This document shows positions 5,457-21,761 of a stretch of DNA of 64,000 bases, piece after piece. Location of the stretch: assembly GCA_044440125.1 (NCBI GenBank), contig JBITAJ010000012.1, forward strand, positions 128,001-192,000, read 5' to 3'. The translations under genes and the position numbers were made by a program. Below the pieces are notes generated by a model. That model was not told where the DNA came from and searched no databases. It saw nothing but the letters and a program-made list of their open reading frames with translations. The first letter of the stretch is position 1. Each line of letters begins with the position of its first letter. The stretch is from Sedimentisphaeraceae bacterium JB056. GTDB lineage: Bacteria; Planctomycetota; Phycisphaerae; Sedimentisphaerales; Sedimentisphaeraceae.

Positions 5457-5660
5457 CTCAACCTCCGTTAAAAAAAGTCCGACTTGTCAGATATGTCAGA
5501 CAGGTCGGAGAATAGTTTTTTATTTCTCCAATGGTTAATGTTGTGGTGATTTTAGATTGAGTTTCCTTGTCCTTCTCCATTTAAAACCTTCCTCAAAAAA
5601 AGTCCGACTTGTCATTTAAGTCTGACAAGTCGGATGATAGATTTTTATTTTCCAAATGGT
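5448..5660. repeat. Imperfect direct duplication (~88 bp, copies 5448-5535 and 5572-5660), each with GTCnGAC 9-mer repeats
   Basis: Identical 20-mer aaaaaaagtccgacttgtca at 5470-5489 and 5595-5614; shared cttctccat and cca(a)atggt ends. Confidence 0.8.
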
Positions 5661-6805
5661 GAGAGTTCTCGCAGCCTTGTAATAATCGGCGGCATCTCCT
5701 TTATCACTTTGTCTACTTCTGCCTCTGTTGTGTACATGCTTAGGCTGAATCTGATTGAGCCGTGCGCTGCCGTGAACGGTACGCCCATTGCCCTGAGCAC
5801 ATGGCTTGGCTCAAGCGAGCCGCTGGTGCATGCGCTGCCGCTGCTTGCGCAGATTCCGAAGCGATCGAGCATGAGCAGGATTGCTTCACCTTCGATAAAC
5901 TCAAAGCTGATATTGGCTGTGTTGGGCAGGCGGTTGTCAGGGTCGCCGTTGAGCATTGCATTCGGGCAACTGGTCATGAGGGCTTGCTGAAGCTTGTCGC
6001 GAAGTGCCTTGACCTTGGTGTTTTCCAGTTCAATGTGCTGCTTTGCCAGTTCGCACGCTTTGCCAAGTCCGATGATGGCGGGGGCGTTCTCAGTGCCGGC
6101 GCGTCGTCCGCCTTCCTGATGTCCACCGGTCATGTACGGATGAAGCATTGTGCCTTTTCGAATATAAAGTACGCCGATTCCTTTTGGAGCGTGAAGTTTG
6201 TGGCCGGATATACTGAGAAGGTCAATATTGCTGCCCTCAAGGCTTATTGGAATTTTGCCCACAGCCTGCACGGCATCGGTATGGAAAGTGGCTCCATTTT
6301 CCTTTGACAGTCTGGCAACCTCATCGATTGGAAAGATTGTTCCCGTTTCGTTGTTGGCCCACATCATCGTTACAAGTGCTGTCTCTTCATCGATGGCGTC
6401 TTTGAACTCGTCCATATCAAGACGACCGTTTTCATCAACACCTATTTCTACGACTTGGTATCCGTGGGGAGCCATTGCCCTGCACGTAGTAAGTACTGCC
6501 GGGTGTTCAACTCGTGTGGTTATCAGTTTGCGTTTAGCGGGGTTGGCCGATAATGTGCCTTTGATGGCCCAGTTGTCGCTTTCGGTGCCGCCGCTTGTGA
6601 AGAAAATCTCCGAAGGGTCGCAGTTAAGCAGTGCTGCTACTTTTTCACGCGCATTGCGAAGCTTGGTGCTTACCTGCCCGCCGAAATTGTGCATGCTTGA
6701 GGCGTTGCCGTAAAATTCGCCGAAGTACGGCATCATTTCTTCTATAACTTCATCGGCAACCCTTGTAGTTGCATTATTGTCGAGATAAATCGTGTCCATT
6801 GGCAT
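5645..6805 (-). CDS. nifS: Cysteine desulfurase NifS/IscS
   Basis: YLDNNATT, FTSGGTESDN, HTDAVQ, SGHKLHAPKG (PLP Lys), SSGSACTSGSLEPSHVL; adjacent to nifU. Confidence 0.93.
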   Translation of the reverse strand: MPMDTIYLDNNATTRVADEVIEEMMPYFGEFYGNASSMHNFGGQVSTKLRNAREKVAALLNCDPSEIFFTSGGTESDNWAIKGTLSANPAKRKLITTRVEHPAVLTTCRAMAPHGYQVVEIGVDENGRLDMDEFKDAIDEETALVTMMWANNETGTIFPIDEVARLSKENGATFHTDAVQAVGKIPISLEGSNIDLLSISGHKLHAPKGIGVLYIRKGTMLHPYMTGGHQEGGRRAGTENAPAIIGLGKACELAKQHIELENTKVKALRDKLQQALMTSCPNAMLNGDPDNRLPNTANISFEFIEGEAILLMLDRFGICASSGSACTSGSLEPSHVLRAMGVPFTAAHGSIRFSLSMYTTEAEVDKVIKEMPPIITRLRELSPFGK

Positions 6806-6840
6806 TTCTCTCTTTCTTTATGCCGCTTTTGCGATATAAA

Positions 6841-7689
6841 TTATTTCTCCTCGGTTACAGTGATCTTGTCACTTACGTATTCCCTGAGCTTTGCCTGGAC
6901 GACATCTCTGAGTGTAAGTTCTGCCATCTTGCAGTTGGCACACATCCCGCGGAATGCAACCACTACCTCGTCACCGATTATATCTATGAGATCGATGTCG
7001 CCGCCGTCGGCCTTAAGTGCCGGACGAACCTGCTCATCGATAACTTCCTGTATGAGCTGTATTTTCTGTATATTGGTGAGTTTTGCCGGACGTTTTACAA
7101 CCGGTTTGTGCTCAACCTTGGCTTTTTCGCCCTGAACCTGCTCGATTATTTTTTCAATTTCATGGAAACATCCGCCGCAGCCGCCGCCGGCCTTGCAGTA
7201 GTTGGTTACTTCCTCTACTGTTGTCAGGTCGTTTTCACGTACAACGGTTTCGATTTCCTTGTCTGTGAGGCCAAAGCACTTGCAAACAACTTCGCCTTCA
7301 AGCTTATGTACGGTTGTAGAACCTGTGCGGTAATTCTCAATCGCGGCTTCGAGTGCCTCTTTACCCATTACTGAGCAGTGCATTTTCTGGTCCGGCAGGC
7401 CGCCAAGGAAATCCGCGATGTCCTTATTATTTACTTTTTCAGCTTCTTCAAGAGTCATTCCCTTGATCATTTCAGTCAGTGCGGAGCTTGATGCGATGGC
7501 TGAGGCACATCCGAATGTCTGGAATTTGACATCTTCGATACGTTTGTCGGCATCAAGTTTGAATGTCAGTTTGAGTGCGTCGCCGCAAGCCAGCGACCCA
7601 ACTTCCCCGACACCGTCAGGGTCTTTAACTTCGCCAACATTTCGAGGGTTGATGAAGTGATCTTTAACTTTCTCTGTATAATCCCACAT
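6841..7689 (-). CDS. nifU: Fe-S cluster assembly scaffold NifU (IscU + BFD-like + Nfu domains)
   Basis: MWDYTEKVKDHFINPRNVG, ACGD, FGCASAIAS, KMHCSVMG, VCKCFG, GGGCGGC, DGGD, GMCANC. Confidence 0.93.
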   Translation of the reverse strand: MWDYTEKVKDHFINPRNVGEVKDPDGVGEVGSLACGDALKLTFKLDADKRIEDVKFQTFGCASAIASSSALTEMIKGMTLEEAEKVNNKDIADFLGGLPDQKMHCSVMGKEALEAAIENYRTGSTTVHKLEGEVVCKCFGLTDKEIETVVRENDLTTVEEVTNYCKAGGGCGGCFHEIEKIIEQVQGEKAKVEHKPVVKRPAKLTNIQKIQLIQEVIDEQVRPALKADGGDIDLIDIIGDEVVVAFRGMCANCKMAELTLRDVVQAKLREYVSDKITVTEEK

Positions 7690-7845
7690 AAAATTCCTCG
7701 CTTTCAATTAAGCGGTTATTTCAAAAGTATTTAACTCGCCAATAAGGCTACTACAAATTACTACTCACATTATAAGGATTTTGTTTGCCGGTAAAAGGCT
7801 AAAATCTACATCAGTTGTGTTGAGATCGTACCGAAAAGAAAATAC

Positions 7846-7874
7846 TTGACATTTTTTTATGATGTTGTTAGTAT
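7846..7874 (+). promoter_or_regulatory. Sigma70-type promoter for tetR
   Basis: TTGACA (7846-7851), 17-nt spacer, extended -10 TG-t-TAGTAT (7866-7874). Confidence 0.65.
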
Positions 7875-7882
7875 TTACTTAC
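7867..7882. promoter_or_regulatory. Putative TetR operator 1
   Basis: GTTAGTATTTACTTAC, 14/16 match to the perfect palindrome at 8483; overlaps the -10 box. Confidence 0.65.
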
Positions 7883-7903
7883 AGTTTATTTGTGAGGATA
7901 ATT

Positions 7904-8482
7904 ATGGGTAATACCAAAGAACAAAAACGTGAAAATTTACTTCCGCTGCTTTCGGCAAAATTTGCAGAGGTTGGATTCAGGCGGGCAACAACCGCACAAT
8001 TAGCAAAATCATGCGGTGTTCAGGAGACAATTCTGTATAGGCTCTGGCCGGGCAAAAAAGAAATGTTTGTAGACTCAATAGATTATATAACAGAGAACTT
8101 GATATCTGTCTGGCAAAATGAGGCAGGTAAGTATCAATCACTGGCAGAATCACTGAAAAACCTGCTTAATTATGAATCAGAGCACTTTGGAGAGCTTGGA
8201 AATTACATAATAATCTTCTCCGGACTCAATGACGCTGACGATCCTGATATAAAAGGAGCACTGAGCAGGATGTATTTCAGGATACATTCTTTTCTTGTAG
8301 AACTTATCACTAAATACAGGGTTGCGGCGGGTAAGAGTGATAATATTGATGTCGCAATGCAGGTCTGGTCGCTTATCGGTCTTGGCACAATGATAACCAT
8401 TACAAAACGTCTTGGGCTGCTTAGTGACGCTGACAGACAGCGGCTTATGAATCAGATGGGCGGCTTTATGCTTGGTCTTTAA
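7904..8482 (+). CDS. TetR/AcrR family transcriptional regulator
   Basis: FAEVGFRRATTAQLAKSCGVQETILYRLWPGKKEMF HTH; RBS GAGGA before ATG 7904. Confidence 0.9.
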   Translation: MGNTKEQKRENLLPLLSAKFAEVGFRRATTAQLAKSCGVQETILYRLWPGKKEMFVDSIDYITENLISVWQNEAGKYQSLAESLKNLLNYESEHFGELGNYIIIFSGLNDADDPDIKGALSRMYFRIHSFLVELITKYRVAAGKSDNIDVAMQVWSLIGLGTMITITKRLGLLSDADRQRLMNQMGGFMLGL

Positions 8483-8498
8483 GTTAGTATATACTAAC
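8483..8498. promoter_or_regulatory. Putative TetR operator 2
   Basis: Perfect 16-bp palindrome GTTAGTATATACTAAC between tetR stop and UbiA gene. Confidence 0.7.
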
Positions 8499-8533
8499 AA
8501 TATGTAGCGTTAGGTTTATTGAGGAATTGAGAT

Positions 8534-9499
8534 ATGGTTAAGTTTATCAAAGCGTATATAAAATCAATGAGACTCTATTATGCCTTCGTAACCGGTATAT
8601 CGGGATGGGTTGGGCTTTCTTTCTATAAGTTTCTTTATCCAGAGGATTTAACAGTTGCAAGGACTCTGCTGATACTTGGGCTTTTGTTTTTAAGTTGGGG
8701 GATAAACCAGATCGTCAATGATTATCTGGGGCTTAAGGAAGACAGGATAAACGCTCCAAATCGCCCAATGGTTACCGGTGAACTTAAACCACTGCCGGCA
8801 ATGATAGTTACGTGTATTTTGCTGCTTTGTATGATGGTGATATCGTGGATGCTTAATCCATGGTCGCTTATTCCTGCCTTAGCTGGTATTCTGCTCAATG
8901 TGGTTTATGAGTATTCCAAGGCATGGGGACTTACCGCCAATATTGTATTTGGCGTCATGATTTCAATGTGTACTGCATACGGATTTCTTGCCGGTGGCAA
9001 AATGCCAGATCCTTTGTTTACTACCAATCGAATATCAGGGTTAGTATTAATAGCTATAATTAATGGACTTATGACGTATTATACGTATTTCAAAGACCAT
9101 TATGGCGACAAAATGGCGGGCAAGAAGACTTTTATTGTCCGGTATGGGGTGAATGTTGGGCGGTATGTAGGTATCTTTGGTGCGTTTGTCTCCGCGATAG
9201 CGTTGTTGTTCTTCATAACTATAAACTGGCTGCCTGTGGAGACCATTCTTTATAAGGAAACGTTCGTTTTTTGCTGTATAGTGACGTTTTTTCTGCAATG
9301 CCGTACCGCACAGCTTTATTTTTCCTATCCAGAAGGTGAGCGGGCATATTTCAGTCTTGTTACAAACATAAGGGCATGCGTTGCCGGTCAAACCGCTCTT
9401 ATCGCAATATTCAACCAGACTCTCGCCCTTTATCTACTTGTCGCAAGTTATATTCTTATCGGTGTGTTTTTTGAACAGTATAAGGATGCCAAATCATGA
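8534..9499 (+). CDS. UbiA-family membrane prenyltransferase
   Basis: Multiple TM segments; NQIVNDYLGLKEDRINAPNRP and KDHYGDKMAGKKT motifs. Confidence 0.85.
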   Translation: MVKFIKAYIKSMRLYYAFVTGISGWVGLSFYKFLYPEDLTVARTLLILGLLFLSWGINQIVNDYLGLKEDRINAPNRPMVTGELKPLPAMIVTCILLLCMMVISWMLNPWSLIPALAGILLNVVYEYSKAWGLTANIVFGVMISMCTAYGFLAGGKMPDPLFTTNRISGLVLIAIINGLMTYYTYFKDHYGDKMAGKKTFIVRYGVNVGRYVGIFGAFVSAIALLFFITINWLPVETILYKETFVFCCIVTFFLQCRTAQLYFSYPEGERAYFSLVTNIRACVAGQTALIAIFNQTLALYLLVASYILIGVFFEQYKDAKS

Positions 9500-10764
9500 G
9501 ATACGTAACCGGTATATCAAAACTTCTGCTTTACATACGGATTGCCGTGGATGTTGCGATTCGATATATGTTCAGGATGAATCCTGTTCAATATGTGGTA
9601 TTTCTCCGCAGGGCATCAATATTGCTTTGCTGTTTCTGGCACAACAAAACGGTTAAGATGGCTAATGGTTATAAGCTCCAGCTTTATCTGCCGGCATATC
9701 CTTCAAAGGCGTTTTTCTATACGATAGATTCAAAATTGCTCCGCAAAAATCCAGGACCTGCGACAGTGGTTTACTCAATGACTAAGGCATGCAATTATAA
9801 ATGTCCGCATTGTTATCAAAGGTGTGATCAGGGAATTGATATGAGTGAGCAGGTGCTTGCCGAGACAGCGAGAAAAATTCATGAAGCTGGTGTTTCAATG
9901 TTTGATATTGAAGGGGGTGAGCCGTTTTTGAGATTTGAGAGGCTCAAAAAGATTTTTACTGTTCTTGATGAAGAAAGTGAGATATGGGTAAATACTCACG
10001 GCGGAGATGTGGCGGCGGCTCAGCTTAAGGAACTAAAGAGCATGGGGCTTTTAGGATTGATGGTTTCAATACATTCACCTCAGGAAAATCTACATGATGA
10101 ATTTACCGGCATTCCGGGTTCGTTCAAAAATGCTTGCCGGACGATAAAGATTGCCAGAGAGCTTGGACTTGCGGTAACTATTAACAGTGTGCTTTCCGCA
10201 GAGCAAATCGAGAGCGGCTTGCTTGATGATTTGATGGAGCTTGCTAAAAGTTTGGATTGCGATTTTGTTCAGTTGATTCATCCCAAGCCTTCTGGGTTGT
10301 GGCTATCGTGCGAAAAGCAGATACATCAAAGCGGTGAAGTTGTAAAAGCGGCGAGAGAAAAACACAAGCAATATAATTCACATAGCTTTAAAGATTATCC
10401 GGTTTTGATGGCGCAGGTTTTTGAAGAGGATGCTGATTGTCTGGGGTGTACTGCCGGAGGTGTCGACAGATTTTATGTTAATGCTGCCGGTGAAGTTCAG
10501 CCTTGTGAATTTTTGAATATATCTTTTGGGAATGTCAATGAGGAGAGTTTTGAAAAAATATTCGACAGGATGCGAAGTTGTTTTTCTGTGCCGTGCAGTC
10601 AGTGGCTTTGTTGTAGTAAGTCGCAGGAGATCGCTGCGATGATTGAAAAGTATCAGCCGGGTTCTACTCCGCTCAAGTGGCAATATACAAAAGAGCTTGT
10701 GAAAGATTGGAACAGAGGAGAGCCGACAAAACTTTACGGGAGATTGGGAGTGTATCAAAAATGA
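9496..10764 (+). CDS. Radical SAM protein with C-terminal SPASM/Twitch-like domain
   Basis: CNYKCPHC, EGGEPF, CLGCTAGG...YVNAAGEVQPCEF; ATGA overlap with UbiA. Confidence 0.9.
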   Translation: MRYVTGISKLLLYIRIAVDVAIRYMFRMNPVQYVVFLRRASILLCCFWHNKTVKMANGYKLQLYLPAYPSKAFFYTIDSKLLRKNPGPATVVYSMTKACNYKCPHCYQRCDQGIDMSEQVLAETARKIHEAGVSMFDIEGGEPFLRFERLKKIFTVLDEESEIWVNTHGGDVAAAQLKELKSMGLLGLMVSIHSPQENLHDEFTGIPGSFKNACRTIKIARELGLAVTINSVLSAEQIESGLLDDLMELAKSLDCDFVQLIHPKPSGLWLSCEKQIHQSGEVVKAAREKHKQYNSHSFKDYPVLMAQVFEEDADCLGCTAGGVDRFYVNAAGEVQPCEFLNISFGNVNEESFEKIFDRMRSCFSVPCSQWLCCSKSQEIAAMIEKYQPGSTPLKWQYTKELVKDWNRGEPTKLYGRLGVYQK

Positions 10765-11660
10765 TTCTTGTGATGTGTCCAAAAGCAAGATCTGGAAAAG
10801 GCAAAAAACTTTGGAGCAGCTGGCTCAAGATTTTTGATTCAGCAAACGCTGAATACAAAACGGTTGAAACTGAATACAGCGGTCATGCTTTTGAAATTGC
10901 CAGAGAGGCAGACGATACAGTAGTTGCCGCAGGCGGCGATGGCACAATCAATGAAGTGATCAACGGGGTGATGAAATCTTCCCGCGAAAAAGAGATGGGG
11001 ATTCTTTATTGCGGCACGAGCCCTGATTTTTGCCGTTTCCATAAAATACCAATACAGCCAAAGCAGGCCGCCGAAGCGTTGCTGAAAAAGAAAGAACGTT
11101 TGATTGATGTTGCAGAGATAGAATATACAAAAAACGGATTGAAAGAAAATGCTTTTTTCGGTTGCAGCTGCAACATTGGTATGGGAGCGATGGTTGCGGA
11201 ATTTGCTAATAAGTATCGCAAGTTTTTAGGTGATACCTGCGGGACGCTTTGGGGTGTGTTGCTTGCAGTGATGAAAAACAAAATGGTTGATGTTGAACTT
11301 ACCATTGATAATGAAAAAAAGAAATTGCCGCGATGCAATCATATTGTTATTTTGAAAAATCCGTTTATTGCTTCAGGTTTGAAATTGAATGTTGACATAA
11401 AACCTGATGATGGGCTTGGTGTTGTCATTGCGATAAATGATAAAAATAAATTACAGTTGCTCTCTATGCTACCTGGATTTTATAATGGTAATATCATAAA
11501 CGATAAAACAGTTTTGGTTCGTAAGTTTAAAAGTATTGATGTAAAGCCTGTGAACGGGATGATGGATGTAGAGTTTGACGGTGATCCTAAAGGGATGCTT
11601 CCTGTTAGAGTTGAGATTGTCAGCAACGCAATGAAATTAATAGGTGTAGAAGATGCGTGA
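10761..11660 (+). CDS. Diacylglycerol/sphingosine kinase family lipid kinase (YegS/BmrU-like)
   Basis: AAGGDGTINEVING, CGTSPDF (GTxNDF variant), FDGD; ATGA overlap at 10761. Confidence 0.85.
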   Translation: MILVMCPKARSGKGKKLWSSWLKIFDSANAEYKTVETEYSGHAFEIAREADDTVVAAGGDGTINEVINGVMKSSREKEMGILYCGTSPDFCRFHKIPIQPKQAAEALLKKKERLIDVAEIEYTKNGLKENAFFGCSCNIGMGAMVAEFANKYRKFLGDTCGTLWGVLLAVMKNKMVDVELTIDNEKKKLPRCNHIVILKNPFIASGLKLNVDIKPDDGLGVVIAINDKNKLQLLSMLPGFYNGNIINDKTVLVRKFKSIDVKPVNGMMDVEFDGDPKGMLPVRVEIVSNAMKLIGVEDA

Positions 11661-12606
11661 AGAAAATTTTATTGAAGATGTGATCAGCCGTTTTGAAAGA
11701 AGCAGTCAGCAGAAAAATAAACCGTTTACCTGCGATGCCGAGATTGTTGAAATCTCAGGAAAGTTCTGGGCTGTTACGGTTGATGAGTTTTCGCCGCAGG
11801 AAGATTTGTTTTTTGATACTGATGCGTATCTGCTTGGACAGAATCTCGCAACCGCGACTTTAAGTGATTTGTTTGCGTGCGGAGCTAAACCGCAATTCTT
11901 TCTGCATTCTGTTGTTGCCGGTGAAAAAATGGAGTCAGCTTTTTTTGATGGTTTAAATGATGTTCTTGAGCAGTGCGGGTGTTTCCTGCTTGGCGGTGAT
12001 ACCGGCGGTGGAGAATATTTCAGATACACCGCAATTGCGATGGGGCAAATAGAGAACGAAAAAATTATCAGTAGAGTGATGCCTTGCGATGAACAATTGC
12101 TTTGGATAACAGGCAGTGTTGGTGATGCGAATTTATCAGCCTTTTCTCAAAAATCAATGCCGCAGTTTGAATTGCGAATTGAAGAGTCTGAATTTATTGC
12201 GGCAAATGCGGCAAGTTGTATTGATACGAGCGGCGGTTTGATTGATGCGTTGTGGATGTTGAAAAAAGTTAATCCTGATATGAGATTTGAGATAGATGCG
12301 GATATGATTCCATTTGATATCAAGGTGAAGGAATTCTGCAAGGCAGCGGGATTGCCCCCGATGGCTTTTGCTTTTGGAGGTGCGGGAGAGTATGAGTTGT
12401 TGTTTACAACGCCTTACTCTGTGAAGCCGCCGTTTGCCGCAACGTGCATTGGTCGTTGCTGCAGCGATCAGGAAAGCGGTATATATATAAAGACTGATGA
12501 TAAGTCGAGAAGGATAAAAGATGCTCCGCCGTGCGGTCGTGAAATTAAAGATAAGGATGCGTATGTGAAAAAAATATTGGAGCAGGTTAATGACATCATC
12601 TGTTGA
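11653..12606 (+). CDS. Divergent ThiL/AIR-synthase (PurM) family kinase
   Basis: CDAE, VTVD, LSDLFACGAKP, LLGGDT, ITGSVG, CIDTSGGL, GGAGEYELLFT. Confidence 0.75.
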   Translation: MREENFIEDVISRFERSSQQKNKPFTCDAEIVEISGKFWAVTVDEFSPQEDLFFDTDAYLLGQNLATATLSDLFACGAKPQFFLHSVVAGEKMESAFFDGLNDVLEQCGCFLLGGDTGGGEYFRYTAIAMGQIENEKIISRVMPCDEQLLWITGSVGDANLSAFSQKSMPQFELRIEESEFIAANAASCIDTSGGLIDALWMLKKVNPDMRFEIDADMIPFDIKVKEFCKAAGLPPMAFAFGGAGEYELLFTTPYSVKPPFAATCIGRCCSDQESGIYIKTDDKSRRIKDAPPCGREIKDKDAYVKKILEQVNDIIC

Positions 12607-13810
12607 ACATAAAATCTTTTCTCCTCTTAAATTGAAGAATATAACTTTGCCAAATCGTTTTGTCCGTTCGGCAACTTATGAAGGTATGTCGGATTCCAAT
12701 GGTGTTGTGAATAAAAAGATTGGAGAGCTTTACGGCAAGCTTGCTCAAGGAGGAGTTGGGACAATAATAACCGGTTTCTGTTTTGTTTCAAAACAGGGAC
12801 GCGCTATGCAGCTATCGCAGGCAGGTCTCTATAATCAGCAGACAATGAATGCCTGGAAACAAGCATTAGAAATTTTTAGAGAATTCAGGACAGATACAAA
12901 AATATTCGCGCAGCTTGCCCATACGGGAAGGCAGACACTTTCTTCTGTTACAGGATGTGCAGTTGTTGGAGCTGGAAATAAAAAGAGCTTATACTTTCGT
13001 GAGAAGACACGAAAGCTTGATGCTGATGAAGTTCAATCCATTGTTAAAGAATTTGCCGACTCAGCGTTAATGGCAAAGCTGGCAGGTTTCGATGGTGTGC
13101 AACTTCATGGTGCGCACGGCTATCTGATTCATCAGTTTCTTTCACCCGAAACAAACAGGCGAAATGATAAATGGAAAGACGGGAGTTTGTTTCTGCTAAA
13201 TATCATAGAAAAAATAAAAAGCAAATGTGGTGACGATTTTCCTGTGCTTGTGAAATTAAGCTGGGCAGACGACAGGCAACTGAAGATTGATGATACCATA
13301 AAGACGGTAAGAAAAATCGAACAGCTTGTTGACGCCGTTGAGATAAGTTATGGCACAATGGATTTTGCGATGAATATTTTCAGGGGTTCGTGTCCGGTTG
13401 AAGTTGCTTTTAAAATTAATCCGATATTCAAAAATATGAGCTGGTTTTCAAAAGGTCTCTGGAAATATTTTATTGCTCCGCAATATTTGAAAAGATTAAA
13501 ACCTTTTACAGAAAATTACAATCTTGCTGCCGCGATGAAGATAAAAGAAAATACAAATGCTGAAGTTTTTTCTGTTGGCGGTTTTAGAAAATTAAGTTCG
13601 ATGAAGAATGCGATAGACAGAGGCATTTCTGCTGTCTCTCTTTGCAGGCCTTTTATATGTGAACATGATTTGATTCATAAATTCAGGAATGGTTCTGCCG
13701 ATAAATCAAAATGTATTAATTGCAATCTTTGTGCAGTACATTGCGATGGAGATTTATCATCGTCGACTTTACGATTGAATACAAAATGTTATTATCAAAA
13801 TAAAGATTAA
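12590..13810 (+). CDS. NADH:flavin oxidoreductase (old yellow enzyme family)
   Basis: NRFVRSAT, QLAHTGRQ, AGFDGVQLHGAHGYLIHQFLSP, C-terminal CINCNLC. Confidence 0.9.
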   Translation: MTSSVEHKIFSPLKLKNITLPNRFVRSATYEGMSDSNGVVNKKIGELYGKLAQGGVGTIITGFCFVSKQGRAMQLSQAGLYNQQTMNAWKQALEIFREFRTDTKIFAQLAHTGRQTLSSVTGCAVVGAGNKKSLYFREKTRKLDADEVQSIVKEFADSALMAKLAGFDGVQLHGAHGYLIHQFLSPETNRRNDKWKDGSLFLLNIIEKIKSKCGDDFPVLVKLSWADDRQLKIDDTIKTVRKIEQLVDAVEISYGTMDFAMNIFRGSCPVEVAFKINPIFKNMSWFSKGLWKYFIAPQYLKRLKPFTENYNLAAAMKIKENTNAEVFSVGGFRKLSSMKNAIDRGISAVSLCRPFICEHDLIHKFRNGSADKSKCINCNLCAVHCDGDLSSSTLRLNTKCYYQNKD

Positions 13811-13830
13811 TAAATTGAGGTAATGGGGAC

Positions 13831-15081
13831 ATGACTGTAGTGGTGAAAAAAAAGTTTGAGGATTTCGTGAATACGAAAAATCAGGATGTTTTCAGTAAGG
13901 CGTTCGAACTCAATGCTTATCTTCAGGAGAATCCTGAGAAGATGTTGTCGGGGCTTGGTCTTAAAATGCAGGGTCCGGCAGCGCCCAATACTGTTCTGCT
14001 TGACGATGCTGAGCATGAAGTGATAATGCTTGGCTCGAATTCATATCTGAATCTTACAACTCATCCCGATGTAGTGGCAGCATCAAAAGCTGCTTGCGAA
14101 AAATATGGTTATGGTATGGGTGCAGTGTCGCTTTATGCCGGAATCACAGAACTGCACCGTGAGCTTGAAATCGCAATCGCAGACTTTTACAGTACCGAAG
14201 ATGCGATTGTCTTTCCTTCCGGTTATGGAACTAATATAGGGGTTATCTCGGCGATATGTAATCACGATGATATTATAATCAATGATTCGGCAAATCACTC
14301 TTCAATTTTTGATGGCTCGGTTCTCTCCGGTGCAACGCTGAAAATTTATCTGCACAGGGATATGAAAAAACTTGAGCATGTATTGTCTCGAATCGATCGG
14401 AAAGGTCGCGGCGTACTGATTATAACCGATGGCGTTTTTTCAATGCATGGTGATCTTGCACCGCTTGATGAAATTGTTTCTCTTGCGGAAAAATATGATG
14501 CCAGAGTTATGGTTGATGATGCGCATGGAATTGGGATTGTCGGCCCCGGAGGTCGCGGCACTGCGGCGGCTTTTGGCGTGCGTGATAAGATTGATTTGAA
14601 TATTGGAATGCTTAGCAAAGCACCGGGAGGCCTTGGCGGTTTCTGTGCGGCTAAAAAAGAAATCGTCGATTATCTGCGCCTGTACGCAAGGTCATATTTT
14701 TTCTCCACAGCTCTTCCTGCTCCGATAGTTGCCGGTCTCTTGGAAGTGTTCAAGTTGCTGAAGGCAAATGCTGCCGGCCGTAATCAGTTGTGGGATAATA
14801 TTAATTATCTTAAAAGTAGACTGATTGCCGCCGGTTTCAATACCGGTGAGAGTGCATCGGGAATAATACCGATTATTGTAGGTGATGAGGTTGCCTTGGC
14901 AGGATTCCATCGCGACCTTATAGATAATGGTGTGTATACAAATATTGTAAGTTATCCTGCTCTTCGGCGTAAAGAGTCAAGAGTCAGGTTGTGTGTGATG
15001 AGTTCGCTCACAACTCAGCAGATGAATAAGGCTTTGAGTGTAATAATGCAGGCGGGGAAAAAATGGCAGATAATAAAATAG
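13831..15081 (+). CDS. Alpha-oxoamine synthase (serine palmitoyltransferase/KBL/BioF family, PLP)
   Basis: MLGSNSYLNL, SGYGTNIG, NHSSIFDG, DGVFSMHGD, DDAHGIG, LSKAPGGLGGF, FFSTALP. Confidence 0.85.
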   Translation: MTVVVKKKFEDFVNTKNQDVFSKAFELNAYLQENPEKMLSGLGLKMQGPAAPNTVLLDDAEHEVIMLGSNSYLNLTTHPDVVAASKAACEKYGYGMGAVSLYAGITELHRELEIAIADFYSTEDAIVFPSGYGTNIGVISAICNHDDIIINDSANHSSIFDGSVLSGATLKIYLHRDMKKLEHVLSRIDRKGRGVLIITDGVFSMHGDLAPLDEIVSLAEKYDARVMVDDAHGIGIVGPGGRGTAAAFGVRDKIDLNIGMLSKAPGGLGGFCAAKKEIVDYLRLYARSYFFSTALPAPIVAGLLEVFKLLKANAAGRNQLWDNINYLKSRLIAAGFNTGESASGIIPIIVGDEVALAGFHRDLIDNGVYTNIVSYPALRRKESRVRLCVMSSLTTQQMNKALSVIMQAGKKWQIIK

Positions 15082-16058
15082 CTCTCATAACCGGAGCCGC
15101 AGGGTTTATCGGTTTGCATACTGTTAAGAGGTTTGTATCTGAAGGCTGGTTTGTTTATGCCGTGATTCATCGCAGGCAAAGCAGCAGGCTTGATGAACTC
15201 CAGCATCAGGGAAAGGTTTTGATCTTCAAATCAGATGTTACGGATTTTGAAGAGTTGAAACAGCTTTTCGAAAAATTGCCGGAGAAAATATCAGCGGTCG
15301 TTCATTGTGCCGGACGAGCAAGCGATATTGGACGGGCTAAAGAATTCAGGACAACTAATTTTGATTCGGTTCGTTATCTTGGCGAGCTTGTCAGTAGTTA
15401 CGATATACCGAGATTTGTTTTCGTATCAACAACCGATGTCTATGGTATGAGAGATTTTCACGGTGAGGATGAGTCGCAGCTTGATTACGCAGCCAGGCCT
15501 ATCAATAATTATCCTAAATACAAAATCTTGGCTGAAAAGTGTATAAAGGATAACATGGCGCCAGAGAAATGGTGCATATTGCGACCGGCGGCTGTTTGGG
15601 GATGCGATGATCCTACGATGACCAAACGTCTGCGCGATTTTTTTGCTTCATCACCCTTTATTATTCATTTCGGTAAATGGAAGGGACAAAACAGATGGCC
15701 GGCGGTTCATGTAGACTCCGTAGCAGATGCCTGTTATCTGGGAGCAGTTGCCGATGAGGCGGCAGGTGAGGAGATAAATGTCATTGATACGGAAAAAATC
15801 AGCGTTGATCAATTCTATAGGCGAATTATTAAGCAGTATTTCCCTGACAAGAAGTTTTACAAAATCTGCTTGCCTTTCTGGGTTGGCTGGTGCGCTGGTG
15901 CAGTTGTGAGCGGTATATCAAATTTATTCAATTTATCTACTCCGATAGCTGATCCATCCCTATATGCCGCATATTCTGTGAGCAGTAATCTTGATTTCAG
16001 CGGTCAAAAACTCTTGAGAATTAAAAAACGTTACGAAAATCGCAGAAATGCGCATTAA
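15063..16058 (+). CDS. Extended SDR, NAD-dependent epimerase/3-beta-HSD-like reductase
   Basis: TGAAGFIG, HCAG, VST, YPKYK (YxxxK), LRPAAVWG. Confidence 0.88.
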   Translation: MADNKIALITGAAGFIGLHTVKRFVSEGWFVYAVIHRRQSSRLDELQHQGKVLIFKSDVTDFEELKQLFEKLPEKISAVVHCAGRASDIGRAKEFRTTNFDSVRYLGELVSSYDIPRFVFVSTTDVYGMRDFHGEDESQLDYAARPINNYPKYKILAEKCIKDNMAPEKWCILRPAAVWGCDDPTMTKRLRDFFASSPFIIHFGKWKGQNRWPAVHVDSVADACYLGAVADEAAGEEINVIDTEKISVDQFYRRIIKQYFPDKKFYKICLPFWVGWCAGAVVSGISNLFNLSTPIADPSLYAAYSVSSNLDFSGQKLLRIKKRYENRRNAH

Positions 16059-16059
16059 A

Positions 16060-16092
16060 AAGGCTTTGAAAGCATTATGCTCTCAAAGCCTT
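16060..16092. terminator. Hairpin between convergent SDR and ferredoxin genes
   Basis: aaggctttga...tcaaagcctt inverted repeat. Confidence 0.6.
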
Positions 16093-16115
16093 GATGTTTT
16101 AAACTTATCTCTGGA

Positions 16116-16286
16116 CTATTCCATAGAGATAGCTTCAACTGGACACTCATCAACGCAAGCGCCACAGTCTACACATGTATCGGCATCGATAACTGCTTTG
16201 TCGTCCATAGAAATTGCTTCGCAAGGACAAGCGTCTACGCAAGCACCGCAACCTGTGCATGTTTCTGCATCTACTACTGCTGCCAT
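16116..16286 (-). CDS. 2[4Fe-4S] clostridial-type ferredoxin, 56 aa (not in ORF track)
   Basis: MAAVVDAETCTGCGACVDACPCEAISMDDKAVIDADTCVDCGACVDECPVEAISME; two CxxCxxCxxxCP; RBS GAAAGGA. Confidence 0.95.
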   Translation of the reverse strand: MAAVVDAETCTGCGACVDACPCEAISMDDKAVIDADTCVDCGACVDECPVEAISME

Positions 16287-16843
16287 AATAAATTTCCTTT
16301 CAAAAAAAGAATCATTCCATAAGGTTACATACTTTAAAATAAAAATTACTAACGTGATATATATAAAGAAATAGGCGATTATTCCAGTAAAAAATTGAGA
16401 ATTTAGTAAAAAAATGCACAGTTTTTGCCGGGGGGCTTAAGAGGTCTCGAAAGTTGAAAGCCATGACTAACAATTGTGTTTGCTTGTAACATTTATAAGT
16501 GGTTTACATAGCTCATTTAATAAAAATCCCAGATTTACATGAAACTGAATTTTAAGGGTTTAAGGTGCTTCATTTTTTTGATTTAAATTGTTACTTGAGA
16601 AATCATAAAATTGCAATGGATTATTGTGGTATTCATTCATTCGGAGTGGTCTGATATTATTTGCTTAATGTAAGCCGTACGCTGAAAAATGTACGAATAT
16701 GATATTTTGATTTTTTTGAAGGAATTGAGAACTTTTGAAATATTGGATTGAAATAAAGTTTTTTGTAAATTCTTAAATCATTCTTTAGGCGTTGTTTAAG
16801 GCTTGTTTTGTTAGGTTTTTGTTCGGGAAATATAAAATAAATC

Positions 16844-20280: not shown

Positions 20281-20297
20281 ATTTGGAGGAGAAAATC

Positions 20298-21761
20298 ATG
20301 TCTATTTCTGCGGCCAGTTTGCGCGCGGCGGGTGGGGTTTATCGTGCGCTTCGTAAAATCAAACCTCAAACAAAAGAGCAGTTGCTCAATTATGTAAAGG
20401 TATTTTTAGGTGTCAGCGTGCCTGATCAGGTAGTTTGTTCGGGGCATAGCTCACCGGCGGATTATCTTTGGCATGCTTTCAACTGTGATGATGATGCGTC
20501 CGTTTCAAACGGAGATTGTGTTGTGTGGGCAAACCGCGGCGGCGGCAAAACTATGATGGCGGCGGTTGCCACTCTTCTTGATTGTCTATTCAAAGATGCT
20601 GCGCAGGTTCGTATACTTGCAGGCTCTTTCGATCAGGCTTCCAGGATGTATGAGTATCTTGTGAAGTTTGTCTCTGATGGTTTTGAGGATAAGCTTGCCG
20701 AGCCGATTAAAAAAAGCGGTATGTCTTTTGTCAACGGCTCGAAAGTTGAAGTGCTCACGCAATCTGCAAAGAGTGTTCGCGGGTGTCATATTCATAAGCT
20801 GAGATGTGATGAAGTGGAGATGTTTGATACGGAAGTTTTCGAGGCGGCGCAATTCATAACACAATCGACTGACGGCAAAAAAGCCGCGATGGAAATTGCT
20901 TCAACAATGCACAGGCCGTATGGTTTGATGCAGGATGTTGTTGCCGGTGCTAAAGAAAATTCTGTGCCGATATTCAAATGGTGTCTGTGGGAAGTTATTG
21001 AAAAATGCACGCAGCAGAGTTGTTCGCGATGTCCTTTGAATGATGATTGTCGCGGCCGTGCAAAACATGCCGATGGCTACTATAGGATTGATGATGCAAT
21101 AAGTCAGATGCGGCGTTCAAGTCGACAGAGCTGGCAGGCGGAAGTTTTGTGTGAGCGTCCGCTTAATGATAAGCTTGTGTTCTCTGATTTCGAAAGAACG
21201 GTTCATGTTAAGCCGGTAGAGTTTGATATTCGTTTGCCGCTTTATCGCACGATCGATTTTGGTTTTGTCAATCCGTTTGTCTGTCTATGGATACAGGTTG
21301 ATGGAAGCGGGGTGGTGCGTGTGTTGCGGGAGTATCAGCAGAGCCGCATGACAATACTTGCCAACACCGAAAAAATAATTTCGATAACGCCGTGCGATGA
21401 AGCTTGCGTTGCCGCGACATTTTGCGATCCCGCAGGCAATCAGCATAGCGATATTACAGGCACAAACTGTGTGCAGGAAATGCGCCGTGCGGGAGTTCGT
21501 GTGAGAAGCTGTAAGAGCGGCATACTTGAAGGTATTGAAAAAATACGCAAAGCTCTTAAAGACGGCTTCGGCAATTCACGAATTGTCATAGACCCCAAAT
21601 GCACAAATCTTATAAAGTCGCTTGAGACGTATCACTATCCCGACAACTCTCCATCAGAGCTGCCGGTAAAAGACGGCATAAGCGATCATCACATAGATGC
21701 TCTGCGATACTTCTTTGTTAATTATGAAAAAAATACAAAGGTCATTCAGCGACGGTATTGA
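20298..21761 (+). CDS. Phage terminase large subunit-like protein
   Basis: Walker A ANRGGGKT, Walker B LRCDE, motif III AST, nuclease motifs IDFGFVNP, CDPAG, DHHIDALRY; RBS GGAGGAG. Confidence 0.85.
   Translation: MSISAASLRAAGGVYRALRKIKPQTKEQLLNYVKVFLGVSVPDQVVCSGHSSPADYLWHAFNCDDDASVSNGDCVVWANRGGGKTMMAAVATLLDCLFKDAAQVRILAGSFDQASRMYEYLVKFVSDGFEDKLAEPIKKSGMSFVNGSKVEVLTQSAKSVRGCHIHKLRCDEVEMFDTEVFEAAQFITQSTDGKKAAMEIASTMHRPYGLMQDVVAGAKENSVPIFKWCLWEVIEKCTQQSCSRCPLNDDCRGRAKHADGYYRIDDAISQMRRSSRQSWQAEVLCERPLNDKLVFSDFERTVHVKPVEFDIRLPLYRTIDFGFVNPFVCLWIQVDGSGVVRVLREYQQSRMTILANTEKIISITPCDEACVAATFCDPAGNQHSDITGTNCVQEMRRAGVRVRSCKSGILEGIEKIRKALKDGFGNSRIVIDPKCTNLIKSLETYHYPDNSPSELPVKDGISDHHIDALRYFFVNYEKNTKVIQRRY

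Follow-up and report, generated by a model that had tools for sequence, protein, structure and literature searches.

A collinear seven-gene cassette in uncultured bacteria of many phyla may encode an undescribed membrane lipid pathway

Introduction

What does a run of seven closely packed genes in a planctomycete genome make? The genes lie at positions 8534 to 16058 of a 64,000 nucleotide stretch from Sedimentisphaeraceae bacterium JB056 (assembly GCA_044440125.1, contig JBITAJ010000012.1, positions 128,001 to 192,000), which we refer to throughout as the window. They belong to the families of the UbiA transferases, radical S-adenosylmethionine (SAM) enzymes, diacylglycerol kinases (DAGK), ThiL, old yellow enzymes (OYE), alpha-oxoamine synthases (AOS) and short-chain dehydrogenases/reductases (SDR). 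A sequence-only reading of the locus had proposed that together they form an undescribed amino-lipid pathway. On balance, we lean towards the operon being a self-contained biosynthetic unit for an undescribed membrane lipid, a sphingoid-type amino-alcohol phospholipid to which the UbiA enzyme would couple a second lipid part. The nature of the product and the order of the steps are predictions from the enzyme families.

Results and discussion

Seven co-oriented genes with overlapping junctions

The genes and their Pfam assignments are as follows.

8534-9499, + strand: UbiA-family gene (PF01040)
9496-10764, + strand: radical SAM gene with a partial SPASM domain (PF04055)
10761-11660, + strand: kinase gene with DAGK_cat and YegS_C domains (the mechanical open reading frame starts at GTG 10677)
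11653-12606, + strand: AIRS (ThiL-like) gene, for an ATP-utilising enzyme of the PurM superfamily
12590-13810, + strand: Oxidored_FMN (OYE) gene (PF00724)
13831-15081, + strand: Aminotran_1_2 (AOS) gene, for a pyridoxal phosphate (PLP) dependent enzyme of a distinct clade (PF00155)
15063-16058, + strand: SDR gene of the extended, epimerase-fold type (PF01370)

The original description, of seven co-oriented genes downstream of a TetR-family regulator gene with overlaps at five of six junctions (two of them ATGA), held when coordinates and junctions were rechecked. The overlaps measure 4 nt (ATGA) between the UbiA and radical SAM genes, 4 nt (ATGA) between the radical SAM and kinase genes, 8 nt between the kinase and ThiL-like genes, 17 nt between the ThiL-like and OYE genes and 19 nt between the AOS and SDR genes; a gap of 20 nt lies between the OYE and AOS genes. 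The kinase start was placed at ATG 10761 by ortholog alignment, where it forms the ATGA overlap with the radical SAM stop codon. Apparent gene fusions among the long open reading frames (ORFs) were in every case over-extensions of start codons. Catalytic motifs are intact across all seven families.

The cassette is conserved and collinear across phyla

A profile of the ThiL-like protein (A1), searched against contigs from one genome per species, returned 80 loci, whose gene content was scored by tblastn with the window proteins. The single ThiL-like protein used as a query against the genome collection returned no relative. All seven genes are present in 31 of the 80 loci, and all 31 are collinear with the window, with the same order and strand. 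A further seven loci lack the OYE gene alone and leave no room for it, 25 are partial, mostly ended by contig boundaries, and 17 are ordinary ThiL loci, mostly from Proteobacteria, which do not have the other six genes and serve as a built-in negative control. The grouping of these genes is far beyond chance, and the concern that they might not be co-conserved elsewhere is removed by the 31 complete, collinear loci. The absence of OYE from seven otherwise complete loci indicates that it is an accessory. The 334 ORFs flanking the cassettes fall into 307 sequence clusters, so there is no conserved neighbour and the cassette is self-contained.

According to record titles, the carriers belong to Planctomycetota, Verrucomicrobiota (including Victivallales, Lentisphaeria and Kiritimatiellia), Elusimicrobiota, Armatimonadota, Zixibacteria, Sumerlaeia and Gastranaerophilales, together with one Desulfovibrio metagenome-assembled genome (MAG) and two assemblies of gut Alphaproteobacteria. 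The carriers are uncultured, mostly anaerobic bacteria from many phyla. Of 401 sampled genomes from the host phylum, 2 have a ThiL-like ortholog when the protein serves as query; among 61 relatives the number is likewise 2, this genome being included each time. The ThiL-like family is small, with 269 representatives (E up to 1e-30) among 1.84 billion proteins. The AOS tree described below mixes phyla, with Desulfovibrio among Planctomycetia and Alphaproteobacteria beside Elusimicrobium and Gastranaerophilales, which points to horizontal transfer. In one of the Alphaproteobacteria assemblies the cassette is present twice, in nearly identical form on separate contigs (L067 and L069); the AOS sequences of both copies fall together with those from Elusimicrobium posterum and from one MAG each of Gastranaerophilales and Lentisphaerales, a cross-phylum placement that suggests transfer.

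Sister architectures keep six functions

A second profile (A3), built from more distant ThiL-like proteins, retrieved 79 metagenome loci, which were sorted with hidden Markov models of the seven families. The window order is found in 35 loci, a second order in 27 and a third type in one; 16 loci were too short to class. The second order is UbiA-OYE-AOS-kinase-ThiL-like-X-SDR-radical SAM, which is also present in a rotated form, and X is a FabF-type ketoacyl synthase (27 loci). A 96-aa acyl carrier protein (ACP) precedes the AOS in at least five second-type loci, a count limited by the 90-aa ORF threshold, which hides most ACPs. The third type (L176:7995-14420) encodes a ThiL-like protein, an AOS, a kinase, a UbiA enzyme, a classical adh_short SDR and a radical SAM enzyme with a Radical_SAM_N2 domain; AOS, kinase, ThiL-like protein and UbiA are kept, and the reductase and radical SAM enzyme are of other types than those of the window in the same roles. 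The kinase and ThiL-like genes are adjacent in window-type and second-type loci and have the AOS gene between them in L176. A Myxococcia contig carries the kinase, the ThiL-like gene and a radical SAM gene with an adjacent acyl-AMP ligase gene. In the AOS tree, the second-type AOS is not orthologous to that of the window and groups with the Myxococcia AOS near Kbl.

Six functions (AOS, keto-reductase, DAGK-type kinase, ThiL-like enzyme, UbiA and radical SAM) recur through shuffling and non-orthologous replacement. This recurrence is strong evidence for one pathway, in which OYE, ketoacyl synthase and ACP are accessories. The presence of ketoacyl synthase, ACP and ligase in sister loci points to a lipid substrate in acyl-thioester form and to biosynthesis rather than breakdown. 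The polytopic UbiA protein, the hydrophobic tail of the SDR and the DgkB/YegS likeness of the kinase also speak for a lipid pathway. The earlier remark that no ACP is encoded in the operon is correct for the window architecture and does not extend to the sister architecture, which has both ACP and ketoacyl synthase.

The AOS forms its own clade and is paired with a probable keto-reductase

The AOS (PF00155, E 1.4e-47) has an N-terminal extension of ~60 aa and conserves the PLP lysine and the DxAH motif. It falls below every curated NCBIfam cut-off that we compared, for Kbl (score/cut-off 373/460 for NF005394 and 318/493 for TIGR01822), for BioF (332/426 for TIGR00858) and for serine palmitoyltransferase (SPT; 333/640 for NF047600, 311/500 for NF047599 and 272/670 for NF047603). 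Among solved structures it is about equally near to E. coli Kbl (264 bits) and to the Sphingobacterium SPT (252 bits). In a tree from a quick IQ-TREE search, with references labelled by their NCBIfam scores, 50 of 52 cassette AOS sequences form one clade (SH-like approximate likelihood ratio test, SH-aLRT, of 100) with a long stem, apart from Kbl, BioF and 5-aminolevulinate synthase (ALAS). The Kbl references group in a clade of their own (SH-aLRT 100).

This genome encodes no AOS other than that of the cluster, and no BioB (88 vs 225), BioA (245 vs 405) or Tdh (238 vs 458) in it scores over its cut-off. Separate Kbl genes (695 and 665 bits) and a separate BioF gene (439 bits) are found in other carriers: Kbl genes and BioF or BioF-like genes of their own occur in the Desulfovibrio and Sedimentisphaerales carriers, and a Kbl-family gene in Elusimicrobium. 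A Kbl/Tdh or a BioF assignment, which would have undone the proposal of a lipid pathway, was rejected on these scores, the separate clade and the genome context. The GSNSYL motif that had been taken as typical of SPT turned out not to be diagnostic, as a reference BioF has SSNSYL and a Sphingomonas SPT has GTYNYM. A loop arginine is found in all the AOS references (GSRxLNG, SVRFICG; Kbl, BioF, SPT and ALAS) and is serine or proline in all three cassette AOS types (GxxR/SxxxG loop, AOS residues about 97-106). In ALAS, the corresponding loop lines the acyl pocket. The replacement may mark the use of another acyl substrate.

The SDR (PF01370, E 1.1e-26; 3Beta_HSD, E 4.5e-17) conserves the TGAxGFIG Rossmann motif and a YPxxK motif of the YxxxK type, and has a hydrophobic C-terminal segment (residues 268-286). 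Its best NCBIfam matches after GalE are weak ones to the lipid reductase OleD and to HpnA. Against solved structures (E up to 1e-05) it had no likeness to SDR-type threonine dehydrogenases. The protein is a probable keto-reductase by its fold and motifs.

A lipid kinase beside a ThiL paralogue

The kinase has both domains of the DAGK/YegS family (DAGK_cat, E 4e-25; YegS_C, E 2.2e-17) and an invariant GGDGT motif, and scores 98.6 against a cut-off of 118.65 for the YegS/BmrU/DgkB model TIGR00147. A profile of its orthologs has DgkB as best solved relative (2qv7, E 4.7e-35) and matches only the N-terminal part of sphingosine kinase 1 (E 5e-08).

The PurM-fold gene matches ThiL (E 6e-31) far more closely than any other family (SelD, E 1.8e-09), and its protein scores 105.3-107.6 bits against the TIGR01379 cut-off of 184.15. 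The ThiL signatures GGDT, DxSDG and GGDDYEL, defined as residues conserved in 17 ordinary ThiL sequences, are changed in the cassette protein to GGDxG, DTSGG and GGAGEYEL. It keeps metal/ATP aspartates, and the residues that it has in common with ThiL are D28, D44, D72, D116, D191 and S193. The genome's true ThiL is encoded elsewhere (G000:C15:271611-272459) and scores 223.4 bits, over the TIGR01379 cut-off. The cassette gene is, by these comparisons, a paralogue and not the genome's thiamine-phosphate kinase, which disposes of the objection that it might be the only true ThiL. A second ThiL-family match on contig C22 was rejected as unrelated to the cassette, being HypE inside a hyp/NiFe-hydrogenase cluster. 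In this cluster (L130, G000:C22:238000-257000), genes for HypF, B, A, E and D are accompanied by a maturation protease gene and by those for both NiFe hydrogenase subunits, large and small (the small one twice), from which the host can be read as a hydrogen-metabolising anaerobe.

The UbiA enzyme has motifs close to those of an archaeal lipid synthase

The UbiA protein scores 85.7 bits for PF01040 against a cut-off of 34.2 (E 4e-24) and has several hydrophobic segments. On its two Asp-rich diphosphate/Mg motifs and predicted polytopic fold, it belongs to the UbiA superfamily. With an ortholog profile, the best solved relative is digeranylgeranylglyceryl phosphate synthase (DGGGPS; 6m31, E 2.6e-21), ahead of chlorophyll synthase (E 9e-11) and 4-hydroxybenzoate octaprenyltransferase (E 3e-4). 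Its conserved motifs NDYxGLxEDRINAPxRP and YFKDxxGDxxxGK align to NDIFDIEIDRINKPSRP and FEDMEGDKKEG of DGGGPS, so that the Asp-rich motifs are those of DGGGPS nearly letter for letter, with one change, of the middle Asp of the first motif to Gly. The scores against the DGGGPS models NF009521 (54 vs 296) and NF009522 (51 vs 353) are below cut-off.

The radical SAM enzyme and the flavin reductase

The radical SAM enzyme (PF04055, E 3.8e-19; SPASM, E 1.5e-05) has a helical N-terminal extension. Its CxxxCxxC and Cx13Gx4C motifs are invariant and CxxCx5Cx3C, the second half of the SPASM motif, is absent, so that the auxiliary domain looks twitch-like (one auxiliary cluster) rather than full SPASM. 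Its AlphaFold2 model (pLDDT 91.4) matched SkfB, BlsE, SuiB, viperin, MoaA and anSME in Foldseek at TM-scores of ~0.5, with SPASM and twitch kinds both matched and no solved lipid-acting radical SAM enzyme among the matches listed.

The OYE (406 aa; PF00724, E 2.8e-46, profile positions 1-245) covers the first ~264 of 642-645 positions in FadH/BaiCD-type models. It has the flavin mononucleotide barrel without the NAD(P)H domain, and a conserved C-terminal CxxCxxCxxxC...C motif that is a probable [4Fe-4S] site.

A proposed pathway and its rivals

From the enzyme families, the AOS would form a 2-amino-3-keto lipid by condensation of an acyl thioester with a small amino acid, the SDR would reduce its ketone to an amino alcohol, and the DAGK-type kinase would phosphorylate a lipid hydroxyl. 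By analogy with ThiL, the ThiL-like enzyme could add a second phosphate and turn the monoester into a diphosphate. The DGGGPS-like UbiA enzyme may then couple a second hydrophobic part in the membrane, at the place that ceramide synthase has in sphingolipid synthesis, and oxygen-independent tailoring would fall to the twitch-type radical SAM enzyme and to the Fe-S flavin reductase, the latter being dispensable. The coupling could take either of two forms, to which we give about equal weight. In version (a), a prenyl diphosphate would be the donor with which UbiA alkylates the phosphorylated amino alcohol, in the manner of DGGGPS acting on geranylgeranylglyceryl phosphate (GGGP). In version (b), the diphosphate made by the two kinases would itself be the UbiA donor, which gives every enzyme a consumer and requires an allylic carbon. 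A fully specified product, a hybrid sphingolipid/archaeal-type membrane lipid in which a sphingoid amino-alcohol (di)phosphate gets its second tail by DGGGPS-like alkylation, with a relay of DAGK-fold and ThiL-derived kinases and oxygen-independent radical finishing, is a tentative proposal that we hold with clearly less confidence than the general one.

Several observations weigh against this scheme. The ThiL-like protein lacks one ThiL metal-site aspartate, and the ThiL superfamily also carries out ATP-driven cyclisation and dehydration (PurM, HypE); this versatility and the lost aspartate make the designation of a second kinase an analogy. Version (a) leaves the diphosphate without a consumer in the cassette, and version (b) would rely on a saturated sphingoid carbon, which is not allylic and would be an unusual donor. 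Activated alkenes are the substrates of OYE enzymes, and the simple scheme supplies none. The fold search and a protein atlas gave only generic SPASM/twitch relatives for the radical SAM enzyme. The cassette AOS clade joins two SPT-type references loosely (SH-aLRT 86, with long branches in a quick tree), and the scheme assigns to this enzyme neither an amino acid nor an acyl chain length. The cassette is rare and thus accessory, as would be expected of a secondary metabolite no less than of a specialised lipid.

The proposal from which we started corresponds to version (b): the amino alcohol made by AOS and SDR would be carried from hydroxyl to monophosphate to diphosphate by the two kinases, and UbiA would use the lipid diphosphate as donor. 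The transfer would be either intramolecular, as in UbiA-type cyclases, or to an external acceptor. The adjacency of kinase and ThiL-like genes in window-type and second-type loci and the closeness of the PurM-fold gene to ThiL speak for it, as does the fact that UbiA is the only diphosphate-using family in a cassette without conserved neighbours, so that each core enzyme has a consumer. UbiA enzymes ionise allylic or anomeric diphosphates, however, and a saturated sphingoid carbon is neither; a 2-enoyl acyl donor or a later double bond would make the 3-hydroxyl allylic and ionisable, but the only enzyme tied to enone or alkene chemistry, OYE, is missing from the seven otherwise complete loci. 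The UbiA motifs are moreover nearly those of DGGGPS, whose donor is a plain prenyl diphosphate. We regard this route as rather doubtful. What stands of the sequence-only reading is an amino-lipid pathway that is coherent and co-conserved, with an acyl substrate supported by the ketoacyl synthase, ACP and acyl-AMP ligase of sister loci; the UbiA-donor route is strained by the DGGGPS-like motifs and the saturated carbon, and the ether-sphingoid or cross-linked lipid named as product is conjecture.

Other readings move away from membrane lipids altogether. A specialised small metabolite, such as a signal or a prenylated alkaloid-like compound (for example an alkyl-pyrroline or alkyl-pyrrole formed by the AOS on 3-oxoacyl-ACP), would agree with the patchy, cross-phylum distribution in the AOS tree, the rarity in the host phylum and the probable TetR control of the window copy. 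Ketoacyl synthase, ACP, AOS and reductase, which the second architecture joins, are the logic of alkylpyrrole formation in prodiginine pathways. The two kinases would be left without an obvious role, however, no exporter, nonribosomal peptide or polyketide synthase or resistance gene is conserved beside the cassette, and seven families in strict order across many phyla resemble a primary-type lipid module, so that we consider such a product unlikely. Salvage or catabolism is more unlikely still. The substrates would then be environmental lipids: the kinases would re-activate a free isoprenoid alcohol, for example phytol or geranylgeraniol (the task of VTE5/VTE6 in plants), or else reverse action of SDR and AOS would cleave sphingoid bases to an amino acid and an acyl-CoA (compare Tdh/Kbl and threonine). 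In favour of this, catalysis by Kbl-type AOS enzymes is reversible, catabolic operons are often under TetR regulators, the UbiA protein has among its relatives chlorophyll synthase, a user of phytyl or geranylgeranyl diphosphate, and the cassette has no prenyl diphosphate synthase; yet the ketoacyl synthase and ACP of sister loci are biosynthetic parts, radical SAM and UbiA enzymes have no role in simple cleavage, and the SDR does not resemble the threonine dehydrogenases that this would call for (solved structures, E up to 1e-05). We give almost no credence to a chance gathering of housekeeping genes (ThiL, Kbl/BioF, a sugar epimerase and a quinone prenyltransferase). The names are indeed family-level ones and the genome has no other AOS, but all NCBIfam scores are under their curated cut-offs, the true ThiL is elsewhere, no BioA, BioB or Tdh exceeds its cut-off, the complete loci are collinear without exception (31/31) and the 17 ordinary ThiL loci are partnerless.

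Relation to known systems

The membrane lipid that we favour would combine elements of several known systems. The known bacterial sphingolipid route, as set out in the main text of PMC11334938, consists of Spt, bCerS and CerR, and Spt-like genes are reported there in 1271 of 5069 Black Sea MAGs, including 138 from Planctomycetota and 22 from Verrucomicrobiota. That main text makes no mention of UbiA, radical SAM, a kinase or a gene cluster. DAGK-family kinases of ceramide or dihydrosphingosine also belong to this system, and the dihydrosphingosine kinase DhSphK1 of P. gingivalis is described as highly similar to eukaryotic sphingosine kinase (PMC9045371). Like the bacterial sphingolipid core, the cassette places an AOS beside an epimerase-fold reductase, with a DAGK-family kinase that is possibly for the long-chain base, and its sisters have a dedicated ACP. 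Unlike that core, it adds the ThiL-like protein, UbiA, radical SAM and OYE, and its AOS is below the three SPT cut-offs and in a clade of its own. No acyltransferase domain that could mark a ceramide synthase is present in the seven genes or in a conserved flank; the whole genome was not searched for bCerS.

In the DGGGPS reaction, a lipid phosphate with one tail receives its second hydrophobic chain from an ordinary prenyl diphosphate. The archaeal enzyme (6m31) is the nearest solved relative of the cassette UbiA, with almost identical DRINxPxRP and (F/Y)xDxEGDKKxG motifs. The cassette UbiA differs in being far below the family cut-offs and in having no linked GGGP synthase or glycerol-1-phosphate dehydrogenase, and an amino-alcohol lipid would stand in for the glycerol ether as its acceptor. 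The PurM-fold gene has its best family match in ThiL (TIGR01379; PDB 5cc8 and 3c9r), an enzyme that makes a diphosphate from a phosphate monoester, with Mg/ATP aspartates in common; the cassette gene departs from ThiL in its three changed signatures and in always adjoining a lipid kinase gene and a UbiA gene, not thiamine genes. In plants and cyanobacteria, the phytol kinase VTE5 and the phytyl-phosphate kinase VTE6 are followed by chlorophyll synthase or homogentisate phytyltransferase. The same logic, from alcohol to monophosphate to diphosphate to a UbiA-family transferase, can be seen in the cassette, whose kinases differ in having DAGK and PurM folds (families presumably unrelated to VTE5/VTE6) and which adds AOS, reductase and radical SAM. 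The cassette resembles parts of ThiL, Kbl, BioF, SPT and DGGGPS and is a member of none of them by curated cut-offs. A literature search on the gene set and its carriers found no description of the cassette, and the pathway is apparently undescribed.

Regulation and neighbouring genes

A regulator gene lies directly upstream of the UbiA gene, with the following candidate control elements.

7859-8482, + strand: TetR-family regulator gene (TetR_N, E 2.7e-08; likely true start ATG 7905)
8484-8497, between the tetR stop and the ubiA start: perfect 14-bp palindrome TTAGTATATACTAA, candidate TetR operator
7868-7881, + strand: near copy of the palindrome with 2 mismatches, overlapping the -10 hexamer; possible TetR autoregulation site
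7846-7874, + strand, upstream of tetR: best sigma-70-like promoter match, TTGACA-17-TAGTAT with a TG extension (10/12 positions)

The palindrome has its sole exact copy within the window at 8484-8497. A repeat finder run over 7700-8560 reported no inverted repeat, and the contiguous palindrome was spotted by reading the sequence directly. Matches with up to three mismatches number 5 against 2.95 expected, so the weight of the near copy lies in its position at 7868-7881 and not in the count. Promoter-like matches are not enriched in the region (27 vs 23.5 expected), and the 7846-7874 site is a lead only. The palindrome and its near copy fit TetR control over one transcript from tetR to the SDR gene, with TetR binding to them predicted. 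Control of the operon in this genome is probably exerted by a TetR repressor acting at the candidate operator at 8484-8497. TetR homologues are found upstream of the cassette in 2 of the 80 related loci (L018 and L026), which makes TetR control lineage-specific.

The genes flanking the cassette in the window do not travel with it in other loci. Divergent from tetR, genes for NifS (632 bits) and NifU (378 bits), both over cut-off, occupy 5645-7707 on the - strand. NifS and NifU build Fe-S clusters, which radical SAM enzymes and the OYE need; the pair is unlinked to the cassette elsewhere. Convergent with the end of the operon is a gene for a 56-aa ferredoxin with two CxxCxxCxxxCP motifs (16116-16286, - strand). 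We rejected it as a dedicated electron donor because it is not kept beside the cassette (2 distant matches in 142 loci). The ORF at 16048-16374 (+ strand), which has no family or relatives, was set aside as an antisense shadow of the ferredoxin gene. Further downstream are genes for a helix-turn-helix protein, an ABC ATPase and a phage terminase-like protein. The last of these may be the ORF at 20283-21761, which has a terminase RNaseH-like domain (E 2.6e-06), is preceded by small family-less ORFs and is maybe part of a prophage remnant ~4 kb downstream of the operon.

Conclusions

One carrier, Elusimicrobium posterum (L065), is recorded as a named strain whose genome is complete, and the cassette measures only ~7.5 kb, which makes the question directly testable. 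If the proposed membrane lipid pathway is correct, anaerobes of many phyla would have in common an uncharacterised lipid pathway, with a new route to two-tailed lipids in which a UbiA enzyme replaces ceramide synthase. A relative of the thiamine kinase would gain a new enzymatic function; on the more tentative hybrid-lipid proposal, the ThiL-like protein would be the first PurM-fold lipid monophosphate kinase. The pathway would also be a possible source of orphan lipids in anoxic waters and sediments, and would bear on the overlap of bacterial and archaeal lipid chemistries.

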